Assembly: GCA_008690995.1 (NCBI GenBank) | Contig: VRMN01000004.1 | Coordinates: 1,550,001 to 1,614,000, forward strand | Origin: Porphyridium purpureum | Taxonomy: Eukaryota | Reading direction: 5' to 3' | DNA: 64,000 bases | Shown here: one piece after another, positions 8,658 to 52,994 of the stretch | How the letters are laid out: each line of letters starts with the position of its first letter | Position numbering within the stretch: the stretch's first letter is position 1 | Notes under the pieces: generated by a model | Database searches by the model: none | Told to the model about the DNA's origin: nothing | What the model saw: the letters and a program-made list of their open reading frames with translations, nothing else | Translations under genes and position numbers: made by a program

Positions 8658-9722
8658 CCCGCCTCTCACCACCCCTCTCATCCCCCCCCACCACCACCAC
8701 CTTCCCTCCCTCTCCCTCTCCGTTCTTCTCTCTCCTCCCCCTCCCATAACCCCCCACCCCTCACCACTTTTGCCGCCTTCCCTGTTCTTCACTGTGCCGA
8801 ATCTTCCTATCAAGTCGGCGCAGTTTTATTACATCCATACGCACACACCCACACCCACCACGAATACGCCATGATCCACAATGAGTGCGTGCGGTTCGTT
8901 TCTGCGTCTTCTGCGTGTTCATAAACCACCACCACGCCAACAATACAAACCATCAAACAGCTACCAAGCAAGGATGGTTTGACTCCGGCCCAAGAGGTTC
9001 TGCTGGTTCTTTCGTCCTTTTCGTTTCGGAAGGGGGTTGACCGATTTCAAAAATGGAAACGGCGCGTGTGCATCGCACTAGCAGCAGCAGCAGCTCAAAA
9101 TAAGCACACCGAATAACACCGCGCGTTCTGGCAGAGCGCCGCGTTCCTAGTAGCTGCTCGCCTCTTCATAGGTCCCCAGCCTCATTTGAGCCCTATTTTG
9201 AGACATTGGTACAGCTTGGGTACAGTAGATGGCTTGGTTGGTTTGATGTGTGTTTTGGGGATAATGGCGGATCTGCTCGCCGCTAAACCGCTAAACCGGT
9301 AACCAGTAAGCAGTAAGCGGTAAGCGGTAAGGAAGGTGGGTGGGAAGGTGGATGTGTTGGTGATGCGCCGCTGGCGTGGAACTGCGGAGACTGCATCGTT
9401 GGAGCAGGGATATTGCGCAACATTAGGCTCGGGCGCAGGGCGTGGCTACTGAGGCTGTTGGCACGCGGTGTCACCAGGGAAAAGTCGCTTTGTTTGGGGC
9501 AGTGGCGCGCGAGCGCGGTTTGGCGGCTGCCAGTTCGCACGCGCGCGCGGCGACGCTTCCACCGAGAAGTACAGTTTGGGTACTGTTCGACCTGGGCGGA
9601 AACGGTTCAAGTGGTTCACATGGGAGGAATCTGGACGACTTCTGGTTTCGATGTGCGAGGCGGTGGTGGATGGGGGTAATGAGAAAGGGGAGAGGGAGAG
9701 ACGGGAGACCGCGAGCGGAAGG

Positions 9723-12792: not shown

Positions 12793-13271
12793 AATAAGTA
12801 GATCGGGAGCGGAAGCGTTTCCGGTAAGAACGCGGACAAGACGCCAATCATGCTGCTCGCGAACGAGCACGGGCCCAAGTGGAGCGCGGATGGAAATACA
12901 GGGAGTCGTCTCTGAATGGATGATAGCTGCGAGCGCATGGACGGTTTGACACACTTTGAAGGGCTTCTGCCTTCTCGCGGATGTCCAGAATATGACTTTC
13001 GAGATCGCGCGACAGATTCGCGGCGGGGTTGGGCTGCTCGTGCAGAAGCTGCTTTCTCCCGCCCGTTGCTTCAGGCCACGATGTGCTTGGAGTCAGATAG
13101 GTGTGAGATCGTTTGGGCTTCTAGCGTTCGTTTTCTTTACCTAAAATGCATTTCACGGTTTATTGCACGGTCGTTCCATCGGTCTGTACGTCGTCTTTAT
13201 GACATTTGCACGAGCTTCAAATGCGCATTATGCGCGACTGGCCATTTTCATCTTGTTTGTTTAGAGAGCAG

Positions 13272-25241: not shown

Positions 25242-28200
25242 TCACCGCCCTTCACGGCCATCCGAGTCCGTGAAAGAAGCACGAGCAAAGGCTGATGGAA
25301 AGGGCCTTTGCTCCGGCGGGGTCCTTGGAAAGCCCGGACTATTACCGTCCAAGCTGGCCAAGGCAGGACGCACACTAGTTCTGCTGATTATGCGTGAACT
25401 GCTGGCGCCGCCGCGATCCTGCATGGACGCTGTGATAGACGGCATCGATCCAAACAGATGGGAAGGGCTCGAAGAGGGCGAGTAAAACGTGTCCCTCGGG
25501 GGCGCCACCGACTGCTGTTCCTGGACACCACCTGGGAGCAACGGCATGAGCTCAGCGAACACTGCTGCTGCCGCGTACTCGCTCTCGCATGTAGCGACCA
25601 AGGAGCCGATAAAGGGCGGCGGCGGCTGGTGCTGCCCTGTCTCGAGCCGGATGCGAAGCATCAGCTCGTCTCCGAGCTCACGCGCAGCGCTTGACTTCTT
25701 CGCGCCATTTGAGGGTCTCAAGGACATCAAACGTTGGGCCAATGATGGCGCTGCCATATGTCGGTCTCCACCGTCCTTGGTACCGCTCCAGCCTCTGCTC
25801 CGCTGCTTCCAGCGAAGACCCCCGCGTAAGATGGCAACTAGACAAAGTTCAACACGTTCGCACGAGACGCGTACGAGGTCTTCAAGCAGCACTTCCCAGA
25901 TGATCGTCCACCGCCCAGCCATGTGATAGCTGATCTGTTGCGCGATATTTCCGGGCCAGCGCGATTTTTCAGCCGCAGCATCCTTGCTCTGCATGAGATC
26001 CAGGCGGATGGCTCGGTGCGAAGTCAGCAGCAGTACGCTAGTTGCTGAAAGTGCGAAAAGCGCATGGCTCGCTTCGTTTGGCCACTGGCGCTGCTCACGA
26101 TGAAACAAGAAAATCTGCTCGCCCCACGAATCCCGGCGATACGAGAAAGGCACCAGTGCGCCAGATTCAGCAAGGCCTCTTGGCGGGCGTAGCGCGAGCA
26201 AGTACCCATTCAGCCCCACTGAAAACGGCCCCACGTGAACGACTGCAGGGTGCACAAGCTGGCGCATGAATCGAATAAAGAACACGACGCTACTCTGAGC
26301 GAGGCGGATCGTGCTGTATGCCACGCTCCACAGGTTCGGTGACGAACGCATCGAGCTTCGCTGATGGTGTCGCAGGAGCGACAACGTCTCTGAGTACGTG
26401 GATTGATACTCATTTTGCGCCGTCGGCACCGATGGAGTCGCCAGCGATGCCGCCATCAAGGCGCGCATTTCGCGGCTCGACGCACTGCTGAAGTGCTGCT
26501 TCCACCGGTTCAGTCCCTGGAAAACGTCGTAGTACATAGAAGCAAGTCGATCATCCACATCATGGAACCTGTGGGCATTCCGCTTTCGCTGCTTCGGCTC
26601 CAGCTGAAAGACTTGCTCGCCCAAAACAATGAGTTGGGCCAATAGGTCCTCGCACGCATCGAGAAAGCCGCTGGACACGGCGATGACCCCGAGTGACGGG
26701 CAGCTCTTGACCACCATGCGCAACGGGTTGAAGATCTTCAGGCTGAGCACGGTGGAAGCCGCAGCAGTCAGAAACTGCGACGCGTAGTGCAGCGTCATCG
26801 TCCGCATCAGCTGTTGTACGTCCGGCGCTCCCGCATCGAGCACCATGCGCTGCGCGAAAAACGAGAACGGACGCAAGTTGAGAAATGCGCGGTCGACCAC
26901 GGCGAGCTGCAGAATGCGAACGTGAATAGGAACATTCAACTCGGTACCAAAGAGACGAGGCAAATCCGCCGACTTTACGTCAACCGACCATACCGCCCGA
27001 ATGGGATCCACGTAGAGTTCGACCTGCGCCGCCTTTGGTACCGCAAAGCCTGCCGCCGGCGCTCTGGCTTCTGCCAACGGAGCACGAACGAACGATAGGC
27101 GATCAACAAGATGTCGCTGCACAGCCGCTTTCAGGTCCAGGTCCCCTTGACCATCTGTCTCGCACCGTTCAGAGCATCCGCACGTTTCCACCAGCATGTG
27201 CTCCTCGCTGTCTTCCACGCCCTGTCTAGTCAGCAGAGGAAGTATGAAGGCATGCTTCAAGATCAGGAAGAAGCCCGAGTCGGCATCGATCGAGATCGGA
27301 GCCACAGCAACGTGAATGCGTGCTTGCGTATGACCCTGCTGCTGTTTCACTTCTGTGTCGTATATTGCGCTTCCCACCACTCGGATGAAAGGCGGTACGT
27401 CTTGAAAGCTTCTATCTGGCGACTGCACTTCTCTATCGCCAGAGGACCTCAATACCCGCGTGCGCACGTGTGCTCCGCTCTGATCCATATCACGCGAACC
27501 GCTCATTTCGAGCGCCGTGAGCTCGACGTTTCGCGACAGCAGCGGTCTCGCTCGATCCAGCAAGTTGTCTAACTGCACATGTGGTACGCACAAGTGAAAT
27601 GAAGCCGAGGTTTGGCTTTGATTCACGAGGAGGACTGTGGCCAACGAAATGCTTGACGCCTCCAAATAGGCAATCTCAAACGGAACGGAATGATGCTGAC
27701 GCTGTGCGACAGTCGGCGACCGCGCGGCACGATTCGTGGGTTTTGATTTTTGTAGCACACGGGCGACTTTCTGTAGACCACCGAGCGCGGTGCGATTCTC
27801 CAGTTCCACCACTGTCCCCGTGTCACTTAAAACCGACATCGAGATGCCTGCGCATTTCAGAAAAACCCACATCGCCAGTTCCTGCTGTTTCGGGTCTTCT
27901 CTATACCTGATGTGCCCGTTGGTAGGCATGGAAGAAAAGGGAAGCCCACTTGGTAACGATGCTACGAGCGGGCGGTTCGATTCAAAGCGTCCCATTTCTT
28001 CTTGACGCTCGAACTGCAGCCCCCGGGGGCCGACGTCATGGGGCGGCGCAACTGCAGGTGACATACCTGAGTGTATCATCAAGTACATACGTGCACCGTC
28101 GCGAGCACAATGCACGCGAACCGTGAGCGTCTTGGTGCTGCTTTTTGAAAGCTGATGCTTCTGTCTTTGCTTTTGACTGTGTGTTGATGTTCCGCTCGCA

Positions 28201-31200
28201 CGTCTACTCTCGGGCAAACTCACTTGAAAATCCCACTCTCGCCCGTCCCACGCCTCCTCCGCATCAATGCAGCCAACGAACAGCTCCATTTCACTCGCAC
28301 GATCTTTGCGTGTAGCAGATGTGCCAATATCCGTACTGACTCGGCGACGGAGGGTCAACTGGAGTACGCGCTTGCCGCCGGGATCATCCCAAGCGTAGTC
28401 TTGATCGCTGTGAGGATGAAGCAAAACTGTAGGCCTCTTCTTGTCAGAGCGTGCAAGCCCGTCTGGACCAGACACTTGCGCAATCTCAAAAATCTCGTCA
28501 GAATTATTCGCGAGGTACACAGGAATCTGCGCGGCGTCTGCAGGCGACACAGAGACTTTCAGTACGCCGTGCGGATCGGTTACGCACACATTGATCACCA
28601 CAAAGCGTGACGATGGCTTGTTCTTGGTCCTAGTGCGTCTGCTTGTGGTTCGCAAGACCAGTTGCGCTATCAGCGACGTAGGCATTTTGTGAACCCTCGA
28701 GGCGGGTTCGGAGACATCAGGATGTGAAGCGGGAATGCTACTGTAGAGATCGGCCTGGAGCGGCAAGCATCCCATCCAGAGCCACTCATCGTCATCCTCG
28801 TCACCACGCATCGACAAAGAAAGCGCTGGTACCAGTGAACTGACTGGCGCGTACGGTAGCTTCAGCAAGCTCACTGTTTCACCAATGTGCACGGGGCGCG
28901 CGGAGATGTACCTACACGGTGTAAACAGTGATCCGCGAAACGGATGCATCGCCGAACTCAGCCCGAGGCGAAGTACGAGCGCACAACTTTCCCCTGCACA
29001 CCCAGAAGACGTTGGCGGAGATGCACACGAGTTCCGCACATAAACTGCCGGCATCAAGCTCACGATCGTGGTGTCCCGAAAAAGTCCTACCCCACGCGAT
29101 ACTACCGGTGCAATGCAAGTCGCCGCTCGGACAACGTGCCTCTTGCTGGCCAAGTTGGACGCTGATAGAGATGTTCGCGTTCGAACCAAAGGCTTTGCAG
29201 ACGAAGGCGAAGACCCCGCGGACGGGACAAAAATCAGATTGCCCACAGTTTGGCCGCCGCTTGTTAGAACACCGTCCACGTCTTGGCCAGCAAGGGTCGG
29301 AAATTTCATCCATTCCTCGATCGGTGTGACAGAAATCCACTCCGACTGCCCGAGCTTGAGCTTGATGTTTAAAGTCGATCCACTCTGCGCTACCGCATGC
29401 GGTTCCGCATACTCGAGCTTTGAAATATACTTGGGCTGACTATGGCTCCTGGCTGCTGCCACACTCGCAGCAGACGCCTTATTTCGCGAACTTGACGTCT
29501 TTGTGAGGGATGAGGCACGTTGGCCTACCATTACGGATAGTGGCATCTTGAGCACGTCCTGCGGATATAGCATGTTCACGAGCCAAAACTGACTCCAAAG
29601 TCGCACGGTGTATGCCGCGAGCGGGGACGAGCCACAACTTGGTCCGTTTTCGTTGCTGCTTTCCCAATAAATGTGTTCATCTACTGCCACTTGGGCTTCG
29701 AGTGCATTCTGCTGAATGTTCATACCCAGCCCTCCAAACTGAGGGAGAGATACACGCGCGGACAAAGGAGCGAACGATGGCGACTGGGCACTTGCGTCCG
29801 CCAGCTTCACGGGAGCACTCCATGCGCCACTTGACACCAGCCGACAGCGCATTCCAAGCTCCGCGAGACGTACAATACTTGGAGACTTTCTCAAAAAGGC
29901 ACCAGAACCTTGCGAGCCACAACTCAATTCAGAAATCTGCCGTTTCGCGCCACTCGGGATCACGTGTTGATGCATTTTTTCGTGCGCATACTCTTCTTCT
30001 GAATCTTCGACCTGGTACGAATCACTTCGTGCCAAGTCGGAAAAGAAGCCCAGTTCCACTTCTACGTCGTGAGACAACGCATTTTGAAACTCGACAAAGT
30101 CGACCAGGGTAATGGTCTTTCGGCTGACCGCTGGACGAAAGCTCTGTCCGGAAGAGGATTCGCGCACGGCTAAGATATACGTACACTCCACGTCTGGATT
30201 GTGCATCACTACGAGTTGATGCCCAGACGGCCGCGGCTTCGTTTCGTGAGCGCTGGTCCTGCTGCCCAAAGTCCTACCCGTAATCGAAAAGATTGGCTCC
30301 GAGCTCCATGCCCAGCCAAAGTCGGACTGTTCTCCATCGGCATCTACAACACCAGGAAGCCCGCAAAAAATACTGCATGCAGAACCCGGGCCGCGGTCGC
30401 TAAGGAGTGTGAAGAGATCCACTGGGAGTGAGCAACGGTCCGGAGACAATAACTGCCCCAGCAGACGCTCACCCACAGTGACCATCCCTTCTGCCGAGAC
30501 AGCCTTGAGGAGCAAAGTGTGGGAGGAAATATTCACCACAGACACATGTGAGCGCAAGGTGAGCACCGTCGCTTTCCCCACGTGACGCACGTCCACCATA
30601 ATGCAAGCATCGCCTTCTCGACTGGGTGTCGCATGTACACTGGATATTTTCCGTGCACCATCCTGATTTGACTCGGCACATTCTGTTTTGACTATTACAG
30701 CACGTATGCCCGGTGGACAGTCGCGCAGCCGAAGCCGCGCACACGGTAGCAGAACGCCAGGCGCGCTAAAGCTCAAATCCACCATTTCGCGATCATGTGA
30801 CTGCATATCGTTTGTGGAGGGCGAAGGGTCACGCAACGGAACACTGGCGTACGAGGTTGACGCAACGTCTACAAAATTCTCATCAAGCTGATGCTGAAGA
30901 TGTTGTGCTTTTGGCCTCGTCCATACAACGACCTTCAGATCTATTCCAGTCTCGTTACAAATCCATAAAGGCGCGTCCGAGCCCGCAACATTCGAAAGCA
31001 ATCGCTTGTCAAGATGTTGCTCCCCGTATTCACTGCCTGCCTTGCTCAACGTGTCAGGGTCCGAAAGATGCATTGAGGAAGTAAACAGAGGCTGCAAGGC
31101 CCTTTGTAGAATATGAAATGAGCGCACAAATCGAGTGGTCATGTTCAAATTCACCGTTTGCGGCACATGCACATTTAAGAAACATGAAAGCGGTGCTCTT

Positions 31201-34200
31201 GACGACCCATCCGTCTCGTCTCCGCTGCTCGTGCGTTTGCCTCCATCTCCTTTTTCTTCCGCCCGCATAGTGCCAGGTAAGATCGTGCGCTCACATAGTG
31301 GCTCCCACACCCCAATCTCGGGGTACAAGACATCTGACTGGAATTCTAGTTTGGCAGATCCATAAACCGCCTTGTCTCCTGACTGCTTCTGCAGCACAGT
31401 CTCGTCCATCTTTGCCGCATCCGCTTTCAACCCCAACATGAAACGCACTGCGGCGGGCGTTCTGGAGCCCCAACTATCCATCAACACAAAAAAACACTTT
31501 TCTACCTCCAGCTCTACCGTAGGCCATTGCAGCGAGACGAAAGAATAGATTGGACTGCTGCTCTTTCCTCCGACTTGTTCTTGTTCCTGTGACGGTCGCG
31601 GCCGCGCGAAAATCTGATTGTAACGATCGACTTGTTTCTGAGACTGCTCGCAAAGGCCCACGATTGCCATGACTTCTGAAGCAGCCACGTGCACATGGAA
31701 GCCGCTCAAGCTCACGCGCACCTTTGAGCAATCTGTCTCTGTCCGCGTTAAATCGCGTTCGCCGCTGACTTTCCCATGCGTGATGCGTACAATCGGGATC
31801 GGCGACATGCGGGCACCCAAGCAAGCCGTGTAGTGGGTCAAGCGCGAAGCCCCGGAAAGGGCAGTCGTCGCTCTCGACGCCCCTGACACAGACGCTGAAG
31901 ATGACTGCCAGTCTAGATTCAACGCGCCCCCGCCGGCTTTGGTAGCACTGCTGAAACTGTTATTGCTAGCTGTGGTGGTGAAGACACCAGGCGGGCAAAA
32001 TGAAATAAGTGTCTTGGACATGTCGAGCTGAAAGTCTGGAATGCTGCGCGGCGGGTCCGCAATCTGAAGGCATAGAGCCACAGGAGCGCGGCACAGCAGT
32101 GCGCTCGATCGCGGATCAAACGGGTCCGCGTTAAACCACAGCTCCAGTCTCAGTCCCAACTTGACCTCCACTGTGCCATGTGTCTGAACCACTACCGGCA
32201 CCGGTTCGTCGACAAGATCTATAGCCTTTGCATCTTTGATATCCATTGGCCCGGCAGCGGTTGCTTGGTTGTCCTGTGGAGACGGCGGTTGCAAAAAGTC
32301 GACCAGCAAGAGCATGAAATCAGTTGACAGTGATACAAACAGCCTACCAAAGTCAAGCTTCGCGGCTATGTTCATCTCCGGGCCACCACCCCACATATCG
32401 AGCTCAACAGCAAGCGCCAGTTCGTACCCGCGAGCAGGTGTAACACGCTCTGCGCCAGTCAGAAGCAAATCAGGGACGCGGTCTCTCTCAATTTCGTTCA
32501 GAGCTGCGGCTGGCCCTTGCATCACCGAGCGTTCGCTATCACCGGATGCATATTTGAGAGGTGTTCCGCCACGCCGGACTGGACGCGAAAGAATAACTGT
32601 ACGAAACGGGGTATATACTCCGTTGCGCGAGTCGCGGATAGCAATCGAATGAACGCCTATGTGCGTGCGTTCGTGGTACGTTGTCACAGCGCCAGCGACA
32701 TCCTCTGCGCGACTGGTCGCAGAATCGACTACGCGCAGGCCACGAAGTGCCACCGACGCCAGCGGTAAAAGATCTTTGCCGTTGCCGTGACTGTGCTGCA
32801 CAAGCTCAATCTGCACGTCATCTAACGACAATTCGGTACCAAACCAGTCGACGTTGCCCCGCTGCGAGGTCGCCGCAAACAGGTTCGGGTCATACATGAT
32901 ATTGTGCTGGCCGACAGCCAATAACGCTGCCAGCTGCTCGCTTGATAGCATCACGTGCAATTCATTCACACGCAAGGCGACACCTGTGAATGATGCGCGG
33001 CAACCTGCCACAGAGTGAACTTGCATCTGCACATTCATGTTCGTGAGAAACCGAACATGACATGTCTGTGGATGCTCTCGTCGTTGCCTGTCGCTGCCAT
33101 TCAGTAAACTCTCGTGCAACGAGAAGCGCACGGCCCCACTAATTTTGACGCAATCAATCGAGAGTTGGCTGCCCAAAACAGCGGAACCGCTTGACTCTCC
33201 TTGCTGATACAGCTGCGATATCTCCTGCCGTTTCGACGCCAGGAGGTCAAGCTTATTCGCAATTTCGGGCAAGAGTCGAATTCGTGTCGCATGACCTGAT
33301 AAAAGCACTGCATCGCGCATGTGCGCGCCTTGCGGCAATTCAATGAGGAAAGGGCCAGTATTTACACTGATGGCCATACTTTTTGCAGTCGCGTCATGTG
33401 CCGACGGCGGAGTAGCCGCGGCTTGATCTTGTCCTTGACTTTCTATGCTGGTCGGATGCTTCCCGACGGTGCCCATCATGCGAGTCAGAAAAGAAACGAA
33501 GCGCATGACAAATGCTGCCCGGACTCTACCAAGCGTGACCTGAACGTCGCTGTGATTGCTCTTCATGAAGACGAGAGCGTGCAACGCACACTTGTTTGAA
33601 TCAAATTTCGTTCTTTGCACACGAGCATCGCCTTCCGCCATTGTCTCGAAGGACATGGAACTATCGAGCGATGAAGTAGGACGGCTTAGGTCTAGCACCC
33701 GCGGATATAAGCCTTTATGTCGCGTGTGATCGTGCACGCTCAGAGCCTCAATATTTGCCTGCAAAACTTCTGTGCTTGCACGCACATCGGTGTCCTCACT
33801 TTCCACTAGAAAACCTCCATTACGACTTGGATCACTCTTAGCGACGTTTCCTGACTTTTCATACACAACCTGAAGGCGCTCAACGCACAGTCCTACGCCC
33901 CTCTGCTTCTCTTCACCAAGAATGATATCGAGACGTGCTAGATCAAAATTCACGAGAAGCGGCTGCTCAAGCGAAGTCTGGGTCGGTACCGGTGCTGCTG
34001 CTGCTGCTGCCGCCGCCGCCAAGGCTGATGATTCGGGAGAGGATGACGCAGATGACGATGGAAGCACTTGTCCTTGTTGTGTGAATTGACTCGCCATCTG
34101 ATTGCTCCATTGTGAAAAGAACGCAACGTATTGATTAAGGCTCGCGGTGTCGACCGCAATCGCAACGGTGCCGAGCCGCGCACTAATTTCAGGACTCGGT

Positions 34201-37200
34201 TTCCCAAAGGCGAAAGTGTCGTACCACACAATGTCCAAAGCCATGCAAGCTCGAAAGGTTCCACCACTGGAACCCGAGATATCAAAAGAAGAGTACAGGT
34301 CACTGGAGAGGCCTTCTCTTGGTGCCTCCAAGTCGAGGATAGATCCGTCCCACCAGCGTGAATTCTCAGCCTCCAGAGCATTCGCTCTCGATCGCCGATC
34401 GACCAGCGAAATATGCTTGATGCGTGCTCCAGCCTGCGTTCTTCCGCTCTGGTCAGAGCTCATAGATATTTGCAGATCCAAAATGGCCAAGTGAATATCA
34501 AGCGGGGTCGCACTCTCTGCATCGACGACGGTGATGGCAACTCTGGATATCACGGCACGCACGCACATGCTTCTCGGACGCACTAGTTCCTTATCTGGTC
34601 CCAAGGGTACCGATGTTTCAGAAGCGGTCACCGCGACAAGAGTAGGTGGCATATTCGCGTTGGCCGCGCACACATTCAGGATCTCTATGACTCTTGGGAC
34701 AACAGAAAGGTGTAGTTCCGCTTCAACCGGAGATAGGCTCACCTCCACGACTTGCATGCCGCGGTCGCATCCTAGCTCGAGTGCAAACGGGTGCACCAGG
34801 GTGGACACTTTACGAGATGTTTGCTCGATTCTTTCGCTTCCCTCACAAAAAGCGGGATCCTTGAGACAGATCCCTATGCGACTGATCTGTAGCCCTGCCC
34901 AATGCTTCATTGCAGCTCCATTGTCCCCGCCGTGGTCAGAGTTCTCGCAGTCATGGGATACATGTACGGTGGCATTCGCTGCCAAAAAGACAACTTCACC
35001 CGCTTTTCTATCTCCTGCACAGATTTCCATTTGAGACAATGTCAAGCACCCTGAGATTCCGAGAAAGGCGTCTGCGCTCGATTGGGACTCCACAAGAGCA
35101 GCCTCCGGCGGATTGCCCACAATGACAGGCTTGTCATCGCCCACATTTCTACCGTCGGGTGTCGTCTCCATAACGAGATCATCAATTGCTGAAGGCGCTG
35201 TAACAATGCTCGCAGTGTTCATCAGAGCGAGCGCATTGTACATCTCAAATAAAGGCAAGCATGCTCGGAAGTCAGCCTGTAACCGAATTGGGGGAATAAA
35301 GCCGTGAAATTTTGCAGTCCAGGTCTTACTCGTCGTGCTTGAGAGTAGACTGTCACATGCTGAAAAGCCCACGCTCAAGTATTCGGTGTCTATCCCATCA
35401 CCGTCAACTTCATCGTGACCACCTCCGCACTGCAGGACACGGATAGTTTTCGTGCTAGAACTATGGTAGTCCAAGCAACACTGAGTTAGTTCGCACGTTG
35501 CGGTCAAGACATTAGGGTCTGCGTGAGCCTTCAAGCTGACAGAATTGAGACAAAGTTCAAGAGAATTTCCTGCACGCAGACGCCCCGTCCGGGCCTGCAC
35601 TTTCACTGCTATGCGCTGCATGAGCACAGAAAGCGACAGCGACATTGCTGAGGCGGTTGATTCCGACGCTCCTGCATTGAACGGCACACCTGGGTCTCGT
35701 ATTTGAATATCTTCGGCATCTGTGCAGTACGAAAGAATCTCCCGATAGGATTCTTCTAAATTGTGGGCAGACAATGTGCCGCCCTCTTCTTGCTTGTATC
35801 TGGACATACTACTACCCTTCAAACCCACAATTTGACTCACACTTTGTTGGATTCGGAGCTCACGACGCACAAGGCTTCGGAACACAGCCAACTGGAAAGC
35901 AGGCGTGCGGCTCTCAATCTCGAACAACTTGCTTTCCTCGTCAAGGCTAAGCCCGTCTGTAGCGCCAGCTTCGGCGTCTGCCGTGGCCTGGGTTCCACCT
36001 CGTTTCAAGGAATTCCGTGTGAGTAGCCGCAAAAACGTGCGGCGGTCCTGTCCAGCCTGCTTCACGCCAGCTTCTGTGAGCGCAGTGGCGTGCTTCGGAG
36101 AATGCCGAAGCGCGGCACGCACAGCACAGTATGCGTACGACCACCAACTCGTCGCATCAAAGTTTTCATGTGTTAGCGTCGGCCGGCCGTGCTCAAAATT
36201 GCTTCGACGCAGTGTCGTCCGCGTGCTGCGTGAGTGAAATCTCAAAAGCGCACTAATGTCACGATCAGTGCACACCATTTCAAACGGCTCCACGATCGCG
36301 TCACATGTCACACGTTCAAAAAGTCCCTTCTCATCTGAGATGGCGGGAGTGCGGCCTGCTTCTATTGATGTGGCGCTTTCAAGGAGTGCGAACGACATTC
36401 GCACGTTCAGGGGTCCCATAATCGGCTCTGTTTCGGGCTCGTGTTGCAAAAGTTCCTCGCTTGCCCTGCACTTTCCTGCATCCGCGATATCCATGTCAGA
36501 AGCGCCTTTGATTTCAGTTTCCGTTTCCCGCGCAAAGCTTGACACAGCCATTAGTTTGCACAGTTCAAGTCTTTTTGTTAGTTTCGCAGGTACCAACTGC
36601 TCTTGTACCAGTGAGGGGCCTACATGTAGACCAGAAGCCTCAGAAGGTCCACCATCCGCGCTGCTTGTGGTCCCGAGTCGCTCAAACCCAAGAAGGAGGG
36701 TCGTGGCATCACCAAATCGAAGGCGAATGGATGCGTTCACGACCTCGATACTCATGCGCTCCACTATACGTACTGCATGCGGCAATAACACTGAAAGTGC
36801 AAAAGAGCGCAGACGACGAAGCAGAGATACGAGCCATCCGGATTGCTTCTTGGGCTTTGTTCCAGACTCGCTCTGTTCTTGCGCAGCACGCTCTGCAGCG
36901 CGTACAAGCTGCAGGGTGTGCAAGCGGCGCTGCAGACGCATTGCCTGCTGGTACTGCGGCGTCTGCAAGTGCTGCAACAGCATTTCTTCTAAATGCTCTG
37001 AAATCTCGTCAAGCTCAACCTGGAGCCCAACAAGTCGCAACTGGATACTTGCGCCGCCGTACACGGCTCGCCAGGGCACGTCCAAACGCAACTCATCAAA
37101 ACGCACGCGGCGTGGAATCAAAGGCAAGCCAAGCTGGTGGTACAAGTAGACCAACAAGCTTTGTTGCCACGGCACCGACTTCCACGCGACGGACAGGCCC

Positions 37201-37430
37201 GCGTCCTGCTCGATCTCGTGTTTCTCTGCACAACTATCGACATGCGCTTGCGCATCGCGCTTCTCCGCACCGTCCTTGTCCGGACGCACCGCCAACTCCA
37301 CGTCCTGCAGCACGAACGAGTCTGCTCCGACGCTCACATTCAACCGGTCCAAGTCGGCCTCGCCAATCAGCGCGGCGCCAAAGTACGGTTCCAAGCGGCG
37401 CAGCACCCATTTCTTCAGGCGCGCTTGCAT
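25242..37430 (-). CDS. VPS13/chorein-like giant lipid-transfer protein (about 4060 aa, single exon)
   Basis: Chorein-N-like start (L..YFG..L.V.VG..LQDVEL..L.LDVPW); WWSYAY; WEPLCE; YAWDDP.G VAB-like; VQLDNL; RPPR and PH-like C-terminus. Confidence 0.8.
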   Translation of the reverse strand: MQARLKKWVLRRLEPYFGAALIGEADLDRLNVSVGADSFVLQDVELAVRPDKDGAEKRDAQAHVDSCAEKHEIEQDAGLSVAWKSVPWQQSLLVYLYHQLGLPLIPRRVRFDELRLDVPWRAVYGGASIQLRLVGLQVELDEISEHLEEMLLQHLQTPQYQQAMRLQRRLHTLQLVRAAERAAQEQSESGTKPKKQSGWLVSLLRRLRSFALSVLLPHAVRIVERMSIEVVNASIRLRFGDATTLLLGFERLGTTSSADGGPSEASGLHVGPSLVQEQLVPAKLTKRLELCKLMAVSSFARETETEIKGASDMDIADAGKCRASEELLQHEPETEPIMGPLNVRMSFALLESATSIEAGRTPAISDEKGLFERVTCDAIVEPFEMVCTDRDISALLRFHSRSTRTTLRRSNFEHGRPTLTHENFDATSWWSYAYCAVRAALRHSPKHATALTEAGVKQAGQDRRTFLRLLTRNSLKRGGTQATADAEAGATDGLSLDEESKLFEIESRTPAFQLAVFRSLVRRELRIQQSVSQIVGLKGSSMSRYKQEEGGTLSAHNLEESYREILSYCTDAEDIQIRDPGVPFNAGASESTASAMSLSLSVLMQRIAVKVQARTGRLRAGNSLELCLNSVSLKAHADPNVLTATCELTQCCLDYHSSSTKTIRVLQCGGGHDEVDGDGIDTEYLSVGFSACDSLLSSTTSKTWTAKFHGFIPPIRLQADFRACLPLFEMYNALALMNTASIVTAPSAIDDLVMETTPDGRNVGDDKPVIVGNPPEAALVESQSSADAFLGISGCLTLSQMEICAGDRKAGEVVFLAANATVHVSHDCENSDHGGDNGAAMKHWAGLQISRIGICLKDPAFCEGSERIEQTSRKVSTLVHPFALELGCDRGMQVVEVSLSPVEAELHLSVVPRVIEILNVCAANANMPPTLVAVTASETSVPLGPDKELVRPRSMCVRAVISRVAITVVDAESATPLDIHLAILDLQISMSSDQSGRTQAGARIKHISLVDRRSRANALEAENSRWWDGSILDLEAPREGLSSDLYSSFDISGSSGGTFRACMALDIVWYDTFAFGKPSPEISARLGTVAIAVDTASLNQYVAFFSQWSNQMASQFTQQGQVLPSSSASSSPESSALAAAAAAAAAPVPTQTSLEQPLLVNFDLARLDIILGEEKQRGVGLCVERLQVVYEKSGNVAKSDPSRNGGFLVESEDTDVRASTEVLQANIEALSVHDHTRHKGLYPRVLDLSRPTSSLDSSMSFETMAEGDARVQRTKFDSNKCALHALVFMKSNHSDVQVTLGRVRAAFVMRFVSFLTRMMGTVGKHPTSIESQGQDQAAATPPSAHDATAKSMAISVNTGPFLIELPQGAHMRDAVLLSGHATRIRLLPEIANKLDLLASKRQEISQLYQQGESSGSAVLGSQLSIDCVKISGAVRFSLHESLLNGSDRQRREHPQTCHVRFLTNMNVQMQVHSVAGCRASFTGVALRVNELHVMLSSEQLAALLAVGQHNIMYDPNLFAATSQRGNVDWFGTELSLDDVQIELVQHSHGNGKDLLPLASVALRGLRVVDSATSRAEDVAGAVTTYHERTHIGVHSIAIRDSRNGVYTPFRTVILSRPVRRGGTPLKYASGDSERSVMQGPAAALNEIERDRVPDLLLTGAERVTPARGYELALAVELDMWGGGPEMNIAAKLDFGRLFVSLSTDFMLLLVDFLQPPSPQDNQATAAGPMDIKDAKAIDLVDEPVPVVVQTHGTVEVKLGLRLELWFNADPFDPRSSALLCRAPVALCLQIADPPRSIPDFQLDMSKTLISFCPPGVFTTTASNNSFSSATKAGGGALNLDWQSSSASVSGASRATTALSGASRLTHYTACLGARMSPIPIVRITHGKVSGERDLTRTETDCSKVRVSLSGFHVHVAASEVMAIVGLCEQSQKQVDRYNQIFARPRPSQEQEQVGGKSSSPIYSFVSLQWPTVELEVEKCFFVLMDSWGSRTPAAVRFMLGLKADAAKMDETVLQKQSGDKAVYGSAKLEFQSDVLYPEIGVWEPLCERTILPGTMRAEEKGDGGKRTSSGDETDGSSRAPLSCFLNVHVPQTVNLNMTTRFVRSFHILQRALQPLFTSSMHLSDPDTLSKAGSEYGEQHLDKRLLSNVAGSDAPLWICNETGIDLKVVVWTRPKAQHLQHQLDENFVDVASTSYASVPLRDPSPSTNDMQSHDREMVDLSFSAPGVLLPCARLRLRDCPPGIRAVIVKTECAESNQDGARKISSVHATPSREGDACIMVDVRHVGKATVLTLRSHVSVVNISSHTLLLKAVSAEGMVTVGERLLGQLLSPDRCSLPVDLFTLLSDRGPGSACSIFCGLPGVVDADGEQSDFGWAWSSEPIFSITGRTLGSRTSAHETKPRPSGHQLVVMHNPDVECTYILAVRESSSGQSFRPAVSRKTITLVDFVEFQNALSHDVEVELGFFSDLARSDSYQVEDSEEEYAHEKMHQHVIPSGAKRQISELSCGSQGSGAFLRKSPSIVRLAELGMRCRLVSSGAWSAPVKLADASAQSPSFAPLSARVSLPQFGGLGMNIQQNALEAQVAVDEHIYWESSNENGPSCGSSPLAAYTVRLWSQFWLVNMLYPQDVLKMPLSVMVGQRASSLTKTSSSRNKASAASVAAARSHSQPKYISKLEYAEPHAVAQSGSTLNIKLKLGQSEWISVTPIEEWMKFPTLAGQDVDGVLTSGGQTVGNLIFVPSAGSSPSSAKPLVRTRTSLSASNLASKRHVVRAATCIAPVVSRGVGLFRDTTIVSLMPAVYVRNSCASPPTSSGCAGESCALVLRLGLSSAMHPFRGSLFTPCRYISARPVHIGETVSLLKLPYAPVSSLVPALSLSMRGDEDDDEWLWMGCLPLQADLYSSIPASHPDVSEPASRVHKMPTSLIAQLVLRTTSRRTRTKNKPSSRFVVINVCVTDPHGVLKVSVSPADAAQIPVYLANNSDEIFEIAQVSGPDGLARSDKKRPTVLLHPHSDQDYAWDDPGGKRVLQLTLRRRVSTDIGTSATRKDRASEMELFVGCIDAEEAWDGREWDFQVSLPESRRASGTSTHSQKQRQKHQLSKSSTKTLTVRVHCARDGARMYLMIHSGMSPAVAPPHDVGPRGLQFERQEEMGRFESNRPLVASLPSGLPFSSMPTNGHIRYREDPKQQELAMWVFLKCAGISMSVLSDTGTVVELENRTALGGLQKVARVLQKSKPTNRAARSPTVAQRQHHSVPFEIAYLEASSISLATVLLVNQSQTSASFHLCVPHVQLDNLLDRARPLLSRNVELTALEMSGSRDMDQSGAHVRTRVLRSSGDREVQSPDRSFQDVPPFIRVVGSAIYDTEVKQQQGHTQARIHVAVAPISIDADSGFFLILKHAFILPLLTRQGVEDSEEHMLVETCGCSERCETDGQGDLDLKAAVQRHLVDRLSFVRAPLAEARAPAAGFAVPKAAQVELYVDPIRAVWSVDVKSADLPRLFGTELNVPIHVRILQLAVVDRAFLNLRPFSFFAQRMVLDAGAPDVQQLMRTMTLHYASQFLTAAASTVLSLKIFNPLRMVVKSCPSLGVIAVSSGFLDACEDLLAQLIVLGEQVFQLEPKQRKRNAHRFHDVDDRLASMYYDVFQGLNRWKQHFSSASSREMRALMAASLATPSVPTAQNEYQSTYSETLSLLRHHQRSSMRSSPNLWSVAYSTIRLAQSSVVFFIRFMRQLVHPAVVHVGPFSVGLNGYLLALRPPRGLAESGALVPFSYRRDSWGEQIFLFHREQRQWPNEASHALFALSATSVLLLTSHRAIRLDLMQSKDAAAEKSRWPGNIAQQISYHMAGRWTIIWEVLLEDLVRVSCERVELCLVAILRGGLRWKQRSRGWSGTKDGGDRHMAAPSLAQRLMSLRPSNGAKKSSAARELGDELMLRIRLETGQHQPPPPFIGSLVATCESEYAAAAVFAELMPLLPGGVQEQQSVAPPRDTFYSPSSSPSHLFGSMPSITASMQDRGGASSSRIISRTSVRPALASLDGNSPGFPRTPPEQRPFPSAFARASFTDSDGREGR

Positions 37431-38106
37431 GTCCCCTCGTTCCCTGTGACACGCAAGTACGCAAGCACGCAAGCATGCGAACAGGCACACGCCACCAATC
37501 TGCCACGGGCGCCCAACCCCCCGCACTCCGTCGTTCGTCCGTGCTCCCCGTTCTTCTTCTTCTTCTTCTTCCTCCTCATTCTTCCGCCCTTCAATGCGCT
37601 TGCCGCATGCTTCGGCTGCCACAACTTGTGTCATGTGGGGGGTTCAGTCAAAACACGTACAGTTGACTGTAAATCGTCCAAACGGTCCGCATTACCGCCA
37701 GATGAACCGAACCGATAAGGAATCGGTGAGGACCAAGCGAGCGCAGAGACAGACGACACCAGGAGTAGAGAACGCGGGACGACGAACGTCGGCAGCGCGC
37801 GCGTGATCGTTGCAAGGTTGGAAACCTGCTTTTGGCGTGGTTGGGAGTCAACGTAACCAAGTGTTATGAGGTTGTGCGGTTGAGTCCCAGTAGCGGAGCT
37901 TTTTCACGAACTCAGCTGTGTCTGGATAAAGAAAAGTCGAATGCACAGTTTCAAGCATTAGGGTTAGGGATTCAACGGGAAGACGCAAGTCGTACAGAGC
38001 TCAACGATTGATTACACGATTGACAATTGTTTCAGGTTACAAAAGGAGAATGATAAACCACGCAAGGACTCCAGGTGGCTCGGACACCCACACGCGCATA
38101 CGGTAC

Positions 38107-40281
38107 TTATGTGAGCGCATTCATGGCGATGACAAACTCCACGATGCTGATGGAATTGTTACGGTCACGGTCTTTGGACCGCAGCACTGCCTTGATCCGC
38201 TCGAACTCCACCCTGTCGCAGAGTAGCTCTGCAGCGACATGAGCCGCCGTCTCGACGTCGAGTTCCTTCACTTCCGTGACGGCACACATCTGGTTGAATG
38301 CAGCTTTCCATTGTGCCAATTTGTCGCTCATTGATTCACGCCCTGAACCAGCTGGATTCGGCGGGACGCGAGATTTTCGCTTCAGGTCCTCCAACTCGCG
38401 CAGCGCGTGGCTATTCTCCATCGCCGTAATCATCTGTATCATTCCCATCACAGCGACCTGCGGCGCAGCAAGGTGGTGATCGCGTACCGACGCATGGAGT
38501 GCGCCGTCTGCCCACATTTCCCCCACTAGCTCAATCGCATTGATAATATTTTCTGCGCCTCCTACAAGCTCCGCAGCATTTGTCACGATTTCCACAACCG
38601 ACGAGAAGTCCACTATGCTGTCCAGGATCTTGGTCAGTCCAGCGCCAGCGTACGGGATGAAAGAGATGAGAGCCGTCACCGCAGCAATCGTCGCCCTTCT
38701 CTTCAAATGCTTGCGGTAGAGTCCCTTGAATGCTCGCACCTGCGCGTCCACCTGGATGGCGTACTCAGCAACGTTGGTTATGCGTTGATCCAAAAGTACC
38801 ATCGCTGTTTGCAGCCCTGACACGTGATCATTCAAATCAACCACTGCCGTTTGAAGTTGTGACATTTGCGCCGAGTGCAAAGTCACCGTCTCCTCCAGCG
38901 TACGGTAGCGGAAGTCTGCAAAAACGTTGTCCTTTGTAAATTCATGAACCAGCCTTTCCCGCTCATTCGCGTCGATCACTTTGTCTTGCTCGAGCCTTGG
39001 AAGAATAATCCTGCTCAACATCGTCATCACTTCCGAATTCTTATCAAACTTGAACTCCTTCGAAATACGACGAAGCACGCTTCTAATGTAGTACTGCACA
39101 TGGACTCGTTCAATTTCTCCATTCTTCAGGGCCAGGCTAGCGAGCGTGTAGAGCACTTTGAGCTCTGAAACATCCGAAACTAGTGGGGACAGCCGGACCA
39201 ATGCTTGGTACCCACCAAGTGCTTCGTCATTGCACTGCACGAAAACAGCGAAGAATTGAGATCCTGGTCCACATTTTAGGTCGCTGGTGCCCCACAGCTT
39301 GACCGTGCTGTCCCAGCTGCCGGACGCGATGAACCGGCCATCGGGTGCAAAGTGCACCGCATGCACCTTACTTGAGTGCCCCGTCATGGTGCGCAAACAA
39401 GCGCCGGTCTGCGCGTCCCACAGCTTGACCGTCTCGTCATCGCTGCCGGACGCGATGAACCGGCCATCGGGCGAAAACTGCATTACTGTCACATCATCTG
39501 AGTGCCCCGTCATGGTGCGCACGAACGCGCCGGTCTGCGCGTCCCACAGCTTGACCGTCTTGTCACCGCCAACGGACGCGATGAACCGGCCATCGGGCGA
39601 AAACTGCATTACCGTCACATCATCTGAGTGCCCCGTCATGGTGCGCACGAACGCGCCAGTCTGCGCGTCCCACAGCTTGACCGTCTTGTCGCCGCCAAAG
39701 GACGCGATGAAGCGGCCATCGGGCGAAAACTGCACTACCGTCACATCGTCTGAGTGCCCCGTCATGGTGCGCACGCACACACCGGTCTGCGCGTCCCACA
39801 GCTTGACCGTCTTGTCGCCGCCAACGGACGTGATGAACCGGCCATCGGGCGAAAAGTGCACCGCTAATACCCAGTCCGAGTGACCCATCATAATGCGCAC
39901 ACACGCGCCTGTGTGCACGTCCCACAGCTTGAGCGTGTCCCCGCCAACAGACACGATGAAACGGCCATCGGGCGAAAAGTGCACGGCAAATACCCAATCT
40001 GAGTGCCCCGTGATGGTATGCACGCACGCGCCGGTGTGTATGTCCCACAGCTTGAGCGTGTCGCAGCCAACGGACGCCATAAACCGGCCTTTGGGCGAAA
40101 AGTGCACAGCTAATATCGAATCTGAGTGCCCCGTCATGGTGCGCACGCACACACCGGTCTGCGTGTCCCACAGCTTGACCGTCTTGTCATCGCTGCCGGA
40201 TGCGATGAGCCGACCATCGGGCGAAACGTGCAACGTATTGACGCAATCTGAGTGCTCGCGCATAGTCAACACAGCCGCCAT
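38107..40281 (-). CDS. WD40 protein with eight highly conserved repeats, coiled coil, hydrophobic helices and a C-terminal EF-hand
   Basis: GHS..V..V.FSPDGRFIAS...D.TVKLWD x8; DRDRNNSISIVEF EF-hand loop. Confidence 0.92.
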   Translation of the reverse strand: MAAVLTMREHSDCVNTLHVSPDGRLIASGSDDKTVKLWDTQTGVCVRTMTGHSDSILAVHFSPKGRFMASVGCDTLKLWDIHTGACVHTITGHSDWVFAVHFSPDGRFIVSVGGDTLKLWDVHTGACVRIMMGHSDWVLAVHFSPDGRFITSVGGDKTVKLWDAQTGVCVRTMTGHSDDVTVVQFSPDGRFIASFGGDKTVKLWDAQTGAFVRTMTGHSDDVTVMQFSPDGRFIASVGGDKTVKLWDAQTGAFVRTMTGHSDDVTVMQFSPDGRFIASGSDDETVKLWDAQTGACLRTMTGHSSKVHAVHFAPDGRFIASGSWDSTVKLWGTSDLKCGPGSQFFAVFVQCNDEALGGYQALVRLSPLVSDVSELKVLYTLASLALKNGEIERVHVQYYIRSVLRRISKEFKFDKNSEVMTMLSRIILPRLEQDKVIDANERERLVHEFTKDNVFADFRYRTLEETVTLHSAQMSQLQTAVVDLNDHVSGLQTAMVLLDQRITNVAEYAIQVDAQVRAFKGLYRKHLKRRATIAAVTALISFIPYAGAGLTKILDSIVDFSSVVEIVTNAAELVGGAENIINAIELVGEMWADGALHASVRDHHLAAPQVAVMGMIQMITAMENSHALRELEDLKRKSRVPPNPAGSGRESMSDKLAQWKAAFNQMCAVTEVKELDVETAAHVAAELLCDRVEFERIKAVLRSKDRDRNNSISIVEFVIAMNALT
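39285..40262 (-). repeat. Intragenic 126/123-bp tandem array encoding the WD40 repeats
   Basis: CCACAGCTTGA anchor at 39292, 39418, 39544, 39670, 39796, 39922, 40045, 40168. Confidence 0.95.
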
Positions 40282-48615: not shown

Positions 48616-51600
48616 ATGCAGCTGTACCACTTGACGCTACGGCAGAGCGGGCAGGTCGAAAAGATCGCATACGGCTCGTTCTCGGGCGCCAAGCGGCATG
48701 AGCTTGCGGTGATCAGCGGCTCGCGTGTGCGCCTGTACGCGGTGGCGTCCGTTGGGGATAGCAAGACTCGACGATTGGTGCCGAAATGCAGCGTCGACTG
48801 CTTCGCGCGCATGCAGAGCATCCAAGCTGTGCGCGTGCCAGGTGCAAAAACGGACCGCATACTGCTGAGCTCGGATGCCGGCAGGCTTGTCTTGCTCAAG
48901 GCTGTCATCTCCGACGCCACAGGAGCGCTCACGCTTGTCTCAGAACAGTGTGAGACGTATGGCAAGTCCGGCATGCGCAGAGACGTCCCGGCAAAACACA
49001 TGGCTGTCGACCCGAAGGGCAGAGCCGTCATGATCGCTGCTATTGAGGCCAAGAAGCTCGTTTACGTTTTGGGCAGAACTGCAGAATCAGAAAATATCAC
49101 GCTCAGCTCGCCTATCGAGGCTCACCGCCCGGACCACGTAGTGATCGATGTGGTTGCGTGCGACGCCGGCTATGGCAATCCGCTCTTCGCTGTGCTGGAG
49201 CAGCAGAATTATGCGAGTAATGCTGCGACAAGTATGGCTCCGATATCGCAGCCTCACCTGAAATCACGCGCGTTGGGCTCGGCGTCGCTTCCGCCCAAGG
49301 TGCTGACCCTCTACGAGCTCGACCTCGGAATCAATCACGTGAGACGCAGGAAATCGATTCTTGTGAACCCGTCCTCGCATAAGCTGATTCCGCTACCAGG
49401 GGCTCCGGAGGGGCCAGGTGGTGTGCTTGTGTGCTCATTCGGCCGAGTGTCCTACTACACGTTGACAGCGTTCGACGAGGACGGCGCGGACGGCAGCGAC
49501 TCGCAATCTGCCACGCTGGTTTGCCAGATTCCGCTCCGTAACGAGTCTGACACCGCAGATATTCAGGCCGAGGTGCTGATCAGTGCTTATGCGTTGCATC
49601 GCCAGCGCGGTATGTTCTTCCTGCTCATGGCGAACGAATTCGGTGACCTGCTGAAGCTTGATTTTACGCTTTCCACTGCAACGGCGCCAGCGCAAGTCTT
49701 GGCTCGTGACGACCCGCCAGCATCCGTGACGGCGACGCAAATGAGTCTGTACTACTACGACTCTTTGCCAGGCCCAACGCTCGACTTTGTAATCACGAAG
49801 AACGGCTGTTTGTTCAATGCGTCTGAAGCTGGCGACCACGGTCTCTACCTGATACAGTCCCTAGAAGAGGCAGACAATGTGGAGGATGGAATTTGTACCT
49901 CTGCGCACGGATGTCTGGGTGACTTTGACACAATCATTCCACCAACGCTGCGCCGAAAGGTCTTTTTTGACGCCCGACGGGCGCTTCGGAACTTGCTGGT
50001 TCTTGATCGGCTCGAGTCCCTCGCACCTTTGCTTCGGCCCTGCGCTCCGAATTCAGACGCACCAGACTTGAGCGTCGTGCAACCTTCTGGTGAGCCTGAG
50101 ACAGAAAGTGACCAGATATCCAAGGACGCATGCATTGTGGCCGGTGCGGGATCGCGTCGTCTCGTGAGGCTGCACCGGTCTCTCGCTGTCACTGAGCTTG
50201 CCGTGTCCGAGTTGCCAGCGCGCGCGCTCAATGCATTCAGCCTGCAGCTGGAGCCTGATGGAGAGGACCGCTTTGTCTTGGTTTCCTTTGCGAACGCCAC
50301 GCTGCCTCTACAGGTTGGAGAGTCCATTCAGGAAGCCACCGCGGTTCCTTTTGTCAAAACGGAGCGCACACTCGCAGCATGCACTTTGTACGATGGGAAA
50401 ATGATCCAGGTGCATCGACTCGGGTTTTGTGTCATTCAGGCGCACGCTCCGGCCGCACGCTCTGCACCAGCAGCGGAAACAGATGTCAAGCAAAACGGAA
50501 ACGATACAGATTCTGTCCTCGCAGATGCAAACGAGGCCATTGTTCCCGCAACCGCTTCTGTCGCGGAATCTGTTTCGTTTACAGTAGCACAGGATCATCT
50601 TCTCGCACCCAAAAACAGGGCGACTGACAAGTACCCGGAGGAGCCCTCGGTGCTGCAGGCGGCCGTCAGCGCATCGCAGCTCATCTTGGTTACAAACAAG
50701 AAGCAGTTGATGTACTTCATTCTTGATCCCTCAAGTGGGCAGATGCGGCTTGCGAGTCGGATGGACTTGGTGAGCAGCGAATCCGTTTCCGATGAGAAGA
50801 GCGACAATGCTGTGTCATCGATTTGTCTACCGGGTACCGCTCACGTTCTTGCCGGCTCACAAGATCTTTCGGCAAGCGTGCCATTGGCTTTGAGCTTGGC
50901 ATGCAATACCTCAGCGCCTAGTGATACTTATGCAGGTCTGTGCGCTGTCGCATTAGGGCGCTCGCTGCGAGTGCTCAAGCTGACGCCTTCGGCCGGGGAC
51001 GTGCGGTCGAATTCAAGCGCGCGGCTAATTACGCCTACCGCGCTTCAAATGCTGCCTGCAGATGTCAGCGATGTTACGTTTATCCCGCTGCAAGGTGGCG
51101 ACTTTGCCATGTTGGCGGCTACACGCGCGGGAAGCGTGGTGTATTCGACAGTGGACCACGTAAGTGGTACAATTAGTGGCCGGTTTGCACGCTTACTTGG
51201 TACAGATGCTGTGCACTTTTTTGATGTGCGACTCGTTCGCGCGCAGCTAGCTGAATCTGTCTTTTCTGCGGTTCGCAGTCAGAATCAGCCACATATGTAT
51301 CGCCCACCCCTCGTTGTGGCGGTGTGCGGATCGAGCGGGACAAGTTGGCTCGTGCGGAACATCACGTCCTTTGGTACGTCCGCGGGAGGTTTGCTTTTCA
51401 GTCCGCTTCGTGGAGTCCATATGGAGCGCGGTTGCAGTTTCGCGTCCTCGCACATCTCACCAGGTGGCCTTGTGGGCGTGCACAAGGGTAAGTTGCTCAT
51501 CGCAGTCATTGATGAGATCGAAGGCGTGCTCCTTTCGTTGGAAGAATCAACCTCCGAGCATGCGGCGTTCCATGCTACTTTCGCGTCCGCACAGCACACA

Positions 51601-52994
51601 GTTCGTCGTGTTTTGAGCTTGGGGCAGAAGTCTGGCCATGAATCGTCGCAGAGGGCAGGAACGCGAAATGCTCAGAGTCACCTAGGCGCTTCATTGCAGT
51701 ACGTCGTGTTGGAAGCGGACCCTGTTCATCGGGGAAGTGGTGGTGTGACAACCAAGGCCGGTGCGTTGGCGTCGCGCGTTTGCTTTCGTCGGACGAGGAA
51801 GACATGCCGGCGCTTTCGGCCCCATTCGTGTCTTGCACAGACCTAAGCGAAGACCAGCTGTCAGAGCGAGGGGCGATGAATGGTACGCGATTGATTTTTT
51901 GGGACAAGCCAAACATGCCACACGTGTGCGTGAGCTTAATTGGTGCGGACACTAATACGCCTGCCGTGATCCGCACGTACAAGGTAGAGGAAGGCAGCGC
52001 TGGGGCCGGTACGTCTGTGAATGAATCTCCGGAGGAAAGCGTAGAGGCCGGCAAGCTAGCCTTGCAGGCGGCCGTGCAAGCGCCGAAATCATCGCCCGCA
52101 CCACTGCAAACAGGACTTGTTCGCATTCACGATACAGTGGTCGAAGGTGTCTGCAACGTTCTGTGTGAGTTTGGAGGTCGTTTATTGGCGGGTGTGGGTC
52201 GATCGCTGTTGCTCTTTGACCTCGGGAGGAAAAAGCTGCTCAAAAAGTGCGAAACGGCGCATGTAGTCCAACACAAGATCGTGGACATCAGTCCCGCAGG
52301 CGGCTGCCGGCTCTTCGTGGCCGACGTTCAAAGTTCAGTCTCCGTGGTCGAATATGATCCGGAGTACAATGTATTTCTGGCGCTGGCGGGCGATCCAGTG
52401 CCTCGCTACTGTTCCAGCATTCTGGCGCTCGACTACTGTACGGTTGCGGTGGGCGACAAGTTTGGTAATGTTGCGGTATTGAGTATACCCATCAGCTGCA
52501 GCGCCGCTCCTATGGCTGCAGCGGCGGCAGCAGCAACAATGTCTACAAACAATTGCCTACCGGATGAGCAGCGCTTTTTGCTGACGCTTGAGGCATGCTT
52601 TCATGTTGGTTCCGTGGTCACGGGTCTTCTGAAGATGAATTCTGTCGACTCCCTTCTGACCAGCGGTAATGGCAGCAGTGGTGGTGTGCTGGTCTACACG
52701 CTAATTGACGGTACGGTGGGAGCGCTGCTGCCGTTCGATACCAAACAGAGCGTCAGCTTCATGGCGAACGTGGAGCGAGCCATGCGCGAACGACGTGAGC
52801 TTCTTCTGGCTGGGCGGGACCATCTTGCGTATCGGTCAAGCTTTTATCCCGTCAAGCACGTCATTGACGGCGATTTGTGCGAGCTCTTCGCGTCGCTTTC
52901 GCCAGCTGATCAGGCGGCAGTTGCCAGCAAAGCCAGGGTCGGTACCGCGCTTGTTCTCACCCGCCTACAGGCGCTGCGCTTGGCTGCCATGTAA
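48616..52994 (+). CDS. SF3B3: Splicing factor 3B subunit 3 (SAP130/RSE1), split across two frames near 51760-51840
   Basis: MQLYHLTL, ETYGKSGMRR.VP, DPKGRAVMIAAIE.KLVY, YELDLGINHV; second frame DLGRKKLLKKCE, GDKFGN, GRDHLAYRSSFYPVKHVIDGDLCE. Confidence 0.93.

Follow-up and report, generated by a model that had tools for sequence, protein, structure and literature searches.

How do single-celled algae recognize parasites and other non-self? The matter is little understood, and the candidate algal receptors put forward so far are mostly built on an NTPase (NB-ARC, NACHT, or ROCO). We analyze a gene of Porphyridium purpureum whose product, P0001, carries the evolutionary signature of HET-E on an NTPase-free chassis, and we ask what such a protein could sense and how it could act. 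The gene lies in a stretch of 64,000 nucleotides (contig VRMN01000004.1, assembly GCA_008690995.1), here called the window; all coordinates are positions within it.

The repeat gene and its genomic setting

P0001 is read from a single open reading frame (ORF; Table 1), with an in-frame stop 9 codons upstream. Its WD40 repeats begin at residue 5, all other domains come after them, and inspection of the N-terminus found neither a hydrophobic stretch nor a signal peptide. The WD40 units measure 126 bp in five cases and 123 bp in two, the eighth being shortened; they are 69-95% identical in pairwise DNA comparison, and identities of at least 87% are confined to repeats 5-7. As a tandem array they stand far above chance, with a TRF score of 1084 (runner-up 127) and 10 word matches where 0.44 are expected. 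Mean amino-acid identity between the repeats is 0.69, against 0.25-0.57 in those relatives' propellers that have at least 4 repeats, and in the best stretch of 100 residues 91/100 are self-identical at an offset of 42. The array thus reaches the mark of 85% over 100 residues for "high internal conservation," a mark that, in the available portion of PMC4986451, 0.4-1.2% of repeats reach generally and that is enriched in fungal NLRs.

A preliminary description of this DNA had claimed eight HET-E-like WD40 repeats of 126/123 bp and the absence of NACHT and P-loop. Both claims hold: the unit is 42 codons long and the residues quoted were correct, and P0001 contains no Walker A. Among 37 proteins, the Walker A pattern matches 1, at the end of a 184-residue fragment.

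Table 1. Features of the P0001 gene, with window coordinates
Feature	Residues	Position	Strand	Remarks
Whole ORF (P0001)	724 aa	38107..40281	(-)	No intron sign at contig joints listed
Eight WD40 repeats	5-334	39280..40269	(-)	
Repeat unit starts		40269, 40143, 40020, 39897, 39771, 39645, 39519, 39393	(-)	
Unnamed six-helix domain	342-451	38929..39258	(-)	10-residue block pLDDT 76-96
Coiled coil	457-526	38704..38913	(-)	Continuous hydrophobic a/d core, L462...L526
Basic patch	513-530	38692..38745	(-)	Directly before H1
Hydrophobic helix H1	530-550	38632..38694	(-)	21 uncharged residues, central Pro/Gly; candidate membrane segment
IVDFS motif	556-560	38602..38616	(-)	Asp558 kept in 27/28 aligned members
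Helices after H1	552-636	38374..38628	(-)	Helix 608-634 weakly hydrophobic
EF-hand pair	651-724	38110..38331	(-)	Second loop (38137-38172) canonical, first non-canonical
Likely 3' UTR		37989..38106	(-)	Contig of run X16 (RNA only by guess) with poly(A)-like end at 37989

Genes in the window read without introns. Those flanking the repeat gene are unrelated to it (VPS13-like, superoxide dismutase, FKBP, PTPS, and others), and tblastn found no second copy of the gene within the 64,000 nucleotides. Pieces from run X19, an RNA library, are identical to the window, although contigs cannot prove transcription.

Several other loci in the window merit a record of their own. The VPS13-like gene, which adjoins the repeat gene directly downstream, is a single ORF of 4130 residues (25242-37634, reverse strand) with weak VPS13 matches (VAB, E=0.0019; VPS13_C, E=0.12). 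An RSE1/DDB1/CPSF1-type gene (48616-52994, forward strand) is split over overlapping ORFs, 48616-51846 with two propellers and 51804-52994 with CPSF_A; the split suggests a frameshift, an intron, or an assembly error. A 396-residue protein (7557-8747, reverse strand) pairs a Hint module (E=2.6e-15) with an unclassified N-terminal half. Two neighboring DHH-family genes (9651-11420 and 13221-14606, forward strand) include one with CBS and one with DHHA2, and at 588-2498 ORFs of 413 and 596 residues, both without a Pfam match, overlap on opposite strands.

Paralogues and strain variation

The window stretch, or part of it, is contained in 20 of 24 listed runs, and contigs of 6 runs were compared; the ORF is intact across them. 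Over the C-terminal part, one contig of run X4 equals the window and may be where it came from. Another X4 contig, of 1925 nt, matches residues 357-636 in three pieces at about 77-82% identity and continues from a WD40 end; its coil is shorter by 42 nt, or two heptads. In that run, contigs of a second type correspond to helix 608-624 plus the EF tail. Hand translation of the loose ends where the WD40 array stops gives DLKCGPE, DLQCGLE, and DLHCG (in two forms), against DLKCGPG in P0001. A different letter stands at one repeat position in 11 to 20 contigs of each run. Several contig joints fall at the boundary of repeat columns 11 and 12 (39864), where hand translation adds C, R, L, Y, S, and F as alternative residues of column 11. 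Among the 145, 52, 84, and 85 records compared, many contigs from other loci fit the repeats at 80-95% identity, and no listed piece spans the array. We conclude that there are at least 3 module-bearing genes and a larger pool of repeats; the paralogues that the preliminary description proposed collecting are present in public contigs.

In run X17 there is one more copy (38090-38968), whose coil, H1, and tail share 85-95% identity with the window; its linker is about 96 bases longer, and a single contig is listed over the six-helix domain. Among the contigs listed for four runs (X4, X13, X17, and X19) it appears in X17 alone. This extra copy points to either a mosaic allele or a duplication of recent date. 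The strains show no sign of rapid change, because the few allele differences of run X16 (5 in the C-terminal part, 2 of them amino-acid changes, and 4 listed in repeat 2) include none at the four codons that HET-E diversifies, and the unique contigs of run X1 over repeats 1-4 equal the window.

Probable diversification of the propeller face

Top-face columns are variable in any WD40 propeller. For Podospora NWD repeats, the available text of PMC1805685 reports diversifying selection at codons 7, 9, 25, and 27, which flank the conserved codons 8 and 26; the equal spacing of 18 codons places these at columns 9, 11, 27, and 29 here. When the 8 repeats of P0001 are fitted with a fixed-sites codon model, omega is 3.03 for the four HET-E codons and 0.27 for the rest (LRT 8.02, p=0.0046). 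Null simulations at omega=1, run with a faster version of the model (LRT 7.76), reached the observed value in 0/150 clonal and 1/150 mosaic replicates. The signal is strongest at columns 9 and 11 (LRT 9.26), and sites 27 and 29 alone are not significant (LRT 1.8). Columns 11, 9, and 27 hold ranks 1, 2, and 4 of 42 in non-synonymous divergence, a value that 8 of 20,000 random column triples reach.

Leaving out any single repeat among 1-7 keeps the LRT at 5.5-12.9. Significance is lost without repeat 8 (omega 1.73, LRT 1.96) and in the internal repeats 2-7 alone (omega 1.56, LRT 0.96), and repeats 5-7 are nearly alike at the four sites. Synonymous differences are likewise high (pS 0.75 at columns 9, 11, and 27), so that conversion bringing in older codons could look like selection; such conversion, from older paralogous repeats, may contribute to the divergence at these codons. 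Support for diversifying selection at the four codons is moderate, resting on 8 sequences and leaning on repeat 8. The diversification first proposed is supported at the HET-E codons, with omega about 3, and is not significant at the five sites that had been singled out (1.22, p=0.54). Far from being a single-copy gene under purifying selection at these sites, the gene has paralogues and an omega above 1 at the HET-E codons. The WD40 head is probably a diversifying binding head.

An unnamed C-terminal module

Residues 335-724 contain, in order, a six-helix domain, a coiled coil, a basic patch, a hydrophobic helix (H1), Asp558, further helices, and an EF-hand pair. They match no named family in any library searched, in keeping with the earlier suggestion that the architecture may be undescribed, and none of these libraries describes the module of about 300 residues. 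Pfam yields only 3 matches, all weak, and a Foldseek search of PDB and BFVD gives 0 matches at E<=0.001; the titles and abstract openings of the open-licence literature returned no description of the module or the architecture. Our analysis adds to the preliminary description a trimer-type coil, a separate six-helix domain (conserved residues F343, Y378, F410, D413, and D433), and head and tail swapping across algae.

H1 is the outstanding segment. Its 19-residue hydropathy is at least 1.6 in 22/27 members and below 1.6 in 5/27, and the other segments of the module reach this value in 0/26 (six-helix domain), 0/29, 0/29, and 1/26. The H1 of P0001 is moderately hydrophobic (1.64) and rich in Gly, Ala, Ser, and Thr. 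A basic patch, with a net charge of +1 to +9, lies ahead of H1 in 27/27 rows shown. The positive patch, the 21 uncharged residues, and the near-invariant Asp incline us to the view that H1 sits in the membrane.

Known membrane-active folds were looked for. A HeLo/4HB or pore-forming fold is absent from the top 50 VIA rows, which EF-hand matches filled, and HeLo, MLKL-4HB, and RPW8 are absent among the 25 families listed of the 77 Pfam families matched by 18 members. XhlA matches 3/18 members weakly, its best E of 0.0067 lying below the chance level of coils. The EF-hand noticed earlier proved to be a pair, a helix-loop-helix pair with a 12-residue loop; judged from its loop residues, this tail likely binds calcium.

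Predicted self-association through the coil

A three-copy model of residues 339-636, three being the sole copy number modelled, scored 0.63 against 0.00 for the best of 3 controls, with at least 44% contact agreement between runs and a partner pLDDT of at least 55. The score mark is reached by 21/30 microbial and 17/29 eukaryotic solved self-pairs and by 0/23 and 0/30 single chains; this calibration is for two copies, and of 7 eukaryotic pairs that have no older solved relative only 1 reached the mark. The predicted interface comprises the heptad core of the coil, L462 to L526, and H1 packed against helix 608-634 of the neighboring chain.

The family offers further indications. The length spanning the coil is a multiple of 7 in 14/24 rows, which are related to one another, and in 6/16 distinct lengths (p=0.02). 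The RhxxhE motif is linked to trimeric coils, though not exclusively, in the accessible part of PMC5381506; it occurs in the coils of P0011, P0013, P0014, P0015, P0021, P0023, and others, and its exact form is absent from P0001. On the model, we think it highly probable that the coil forms an oligomer.

A family with exchangeable heads and tails

Relatives of the module, where named, come from red algae and ochrophytes, the closest named ones being red-algal. Among 36 relatives scanned, the heads are WD40 in 13, ankyrin in 3, and Kelch in 1, and other heads are unclassified; the tails are EF-like or SAM, 1 of them a Pfam SAM match, and differences in coil length often amount to complete heptads. 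P0004, with its ankyrin head, falls inside a group of red-algal rows that carry WD40 (clade 100/100), and sequences with unclassified heads group with those that combine WD40 and SAM (99/99): heads and tails are exchangeable across the family. The canonical EF loop pattern is found in only 9/49 proteins, three of them near-duplicates; the loop is degenerate in most pelagophyte rows, and P0003 ends without a tail.

Two groups of proteins extend this picture. P0005 and P0009, Timspurckia ankyrin proteins, end in 4 and 2 tandem EF-hand-pair tails and have no core module, from which it follows that the EF-hand-pair tail moves on its own. In P0019, P0025, and P0030 the module stands behind an N-terminal region without a Pfam match, which in P0019 and P0025 resembles two copies of a beta-rich unit and may be a new head domain.

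A proposed mechanism and its alternatives

The best explanation, held tentatively and at rather less than an even chance, is that P0001 is an NTPase-free, trimeric cytosolic sensor of non-self that acts at the membrane. Three chains would join via the long coiled coil, and the ligand of the variable WD40 heads would be a protein that is foreign or has been altered. The stalk would relay the signal to a bundle of hydrophobic helices, sitting in or inserting into the membrane, which the EF-hand tail would tune by calcium as feedback. In this arrangement the coil would take over oligomerization, which in NLRs is the task of NACHT or NB-ARC. The output could be ion leak or membrane damage; permeabilization as such strikes us as rather doubtful. 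With a HET-E-like head, an unnamed module, and a missing ATPase switch combined, P0001 may well be a new kind of immune-type sensor.

A bolder version would make the family an undescribed class of NTPase-free algal immune receptors: pre-formed trimers with exchangeable heads (WD40, ankyrin, or Kelch) that gate a membrane pore. H1, the Asp558 motif, and helix 608-634 would line up as a small pore on a heptad-adjustable stalk, EF-hand or SAM tails would give calcium feedback or clustering, and sensor and channel would share one chain, common to red algae, pelagophytes, and diatoms. We regard this full version as unlikely.

P0001 could instead be a soluble trimeric scaffold or adaptor with a coronin-like layout, in which H1 would be buried at the center of a three-chain helical bundle and the heads would bind partners within the cell. 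The low expected error of the contact between H1 and helix 608-634 in the three-copy model is compatible with a soluble bundle, as are the composition of H1 and the members in which its hydropathy stays low; yet no other helix of the module is comparably hydrophobic, the basic patch precedes H1 in every row shown, and paralogue turnover together with diversifying sites is unexpected for a housekeeping scaffold. These points leave the scaffold improbable, though still worth weighing.

Alternatively, the protein may be a single-pass membrane transducer without a pore, with the layout of STIM turned around: beyond H1, an EF-hand or SAM tail would sense calcium or cluster, the coil would relay, and the six-helix domain and repeat head would recruit cytosolic partners. 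The single hydrophobic helix with its preceding basic patch, the N-terminus lacking a signal peptide, and tails drawn from the two domain types of STIM's luminal sensor all suit this arrangement. However, exchangeable heads and an omega above 1 on the binding face fit a sensor better than an output, the scarcity and degeneration of canonical EF loops and the tail-less P0003 sit badly with a sensing tail, and in the model H1 packs with a helix that follows it in the chain. We consider such a transducer a poor bet.

Finally, neutral turnover of a recently re-amplified propeller, whose exposed, unconstrained positions vary without any role in recognition, is quite improbable: it agrees with the continuous amplification of propellers, many of which may decay soon after origin, described in the part of PMC9218822 available, with the similarity of repeats 5-7, and with the lack of significance in the internal repeats, but it is opposed by omega above 1 at the four sites over all 8 repeats beside purifying selection elsewhere, by the intact ORF and the contig with a poly(A)-like end, and by conservation of the module from red algae to ochrophytes.

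Comparison with known systems

In NLR and STAND proteins a central NACHT or NB-ARC P-loop NTPase stands between an N-terminal effector and C-terminal repeats. P0001 has the reverse order, and since the NTPase is absent as well it is not an NLR.

Coronin joins a WD40 propeller to a trimeric coiled coil. The propeller and, in relatives, a parallel coil with RhxxhE-type motifs are shared; the coil of P0001, in contrast, is internal and of variable length and is followed by a hydrophobic helix, more helices, and EF or SAM, and the coronin family is absent among the Pfam matches shown. STIM has a signal peptide, a luminal EF-hand then SAM, which together form the luminal sensor, a transmembrane helix, and cytosolic coils. 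P0001 and STIM have in common a pair of EF-hands of which one loop is canonical, a single hydrophobic helix, and a coil on the far side of that helix; SAM is shared by relatives of P0001. The order is reversed, however, the signal peptide is missing, EF and SAM are alternatives rather than neighbors, and a repeat head is present; P0001 has no SAM, and no sequence or Pfam link to STIM was found. HeLo/MLKL 4HB, ApoL, ClyA-type toxins, and XhlA resemble the module in having a long helix, then a basic patch, then a helix of moderate hydrophobicity that is rich in Gly and Ala; none of them shows a significant sequence match or appears in the top structural rows, which EF-hands dominate.

Closer in lineage, the available portion of PMC6928737 lists 7 NB-ARC+WD40 entries from Pyropia red algae as candidate R proteins. 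These, too, are red-algal WD40 proteins proposed as defense receptors; P0001 differs in lacking the NB-ARC NTPase and in carrying a module that has no Pfam family.

The nearest parallel is the NWD/HNWD family of Podospora anserina (HET-E, HET-D, and HET-R), which shares with P0001 WD40 units of 42 codons, high internal identity, a multi-gene repeat pool, and an excess of amino-acid change at the same four top-face codons. P0001 differs in having no NACHT, HET, or TIR; its propeller is single and N-terminal, and the rest of the chain is the unnamed module with its coil, candidate membrane helix, and EF-hand pair. Algal groups far apart combine that module of about 300 residues with various heads and tails, and if the proposed mechanism is true, it would represent a new coupling of recognition to membrane action in eukaryotes.
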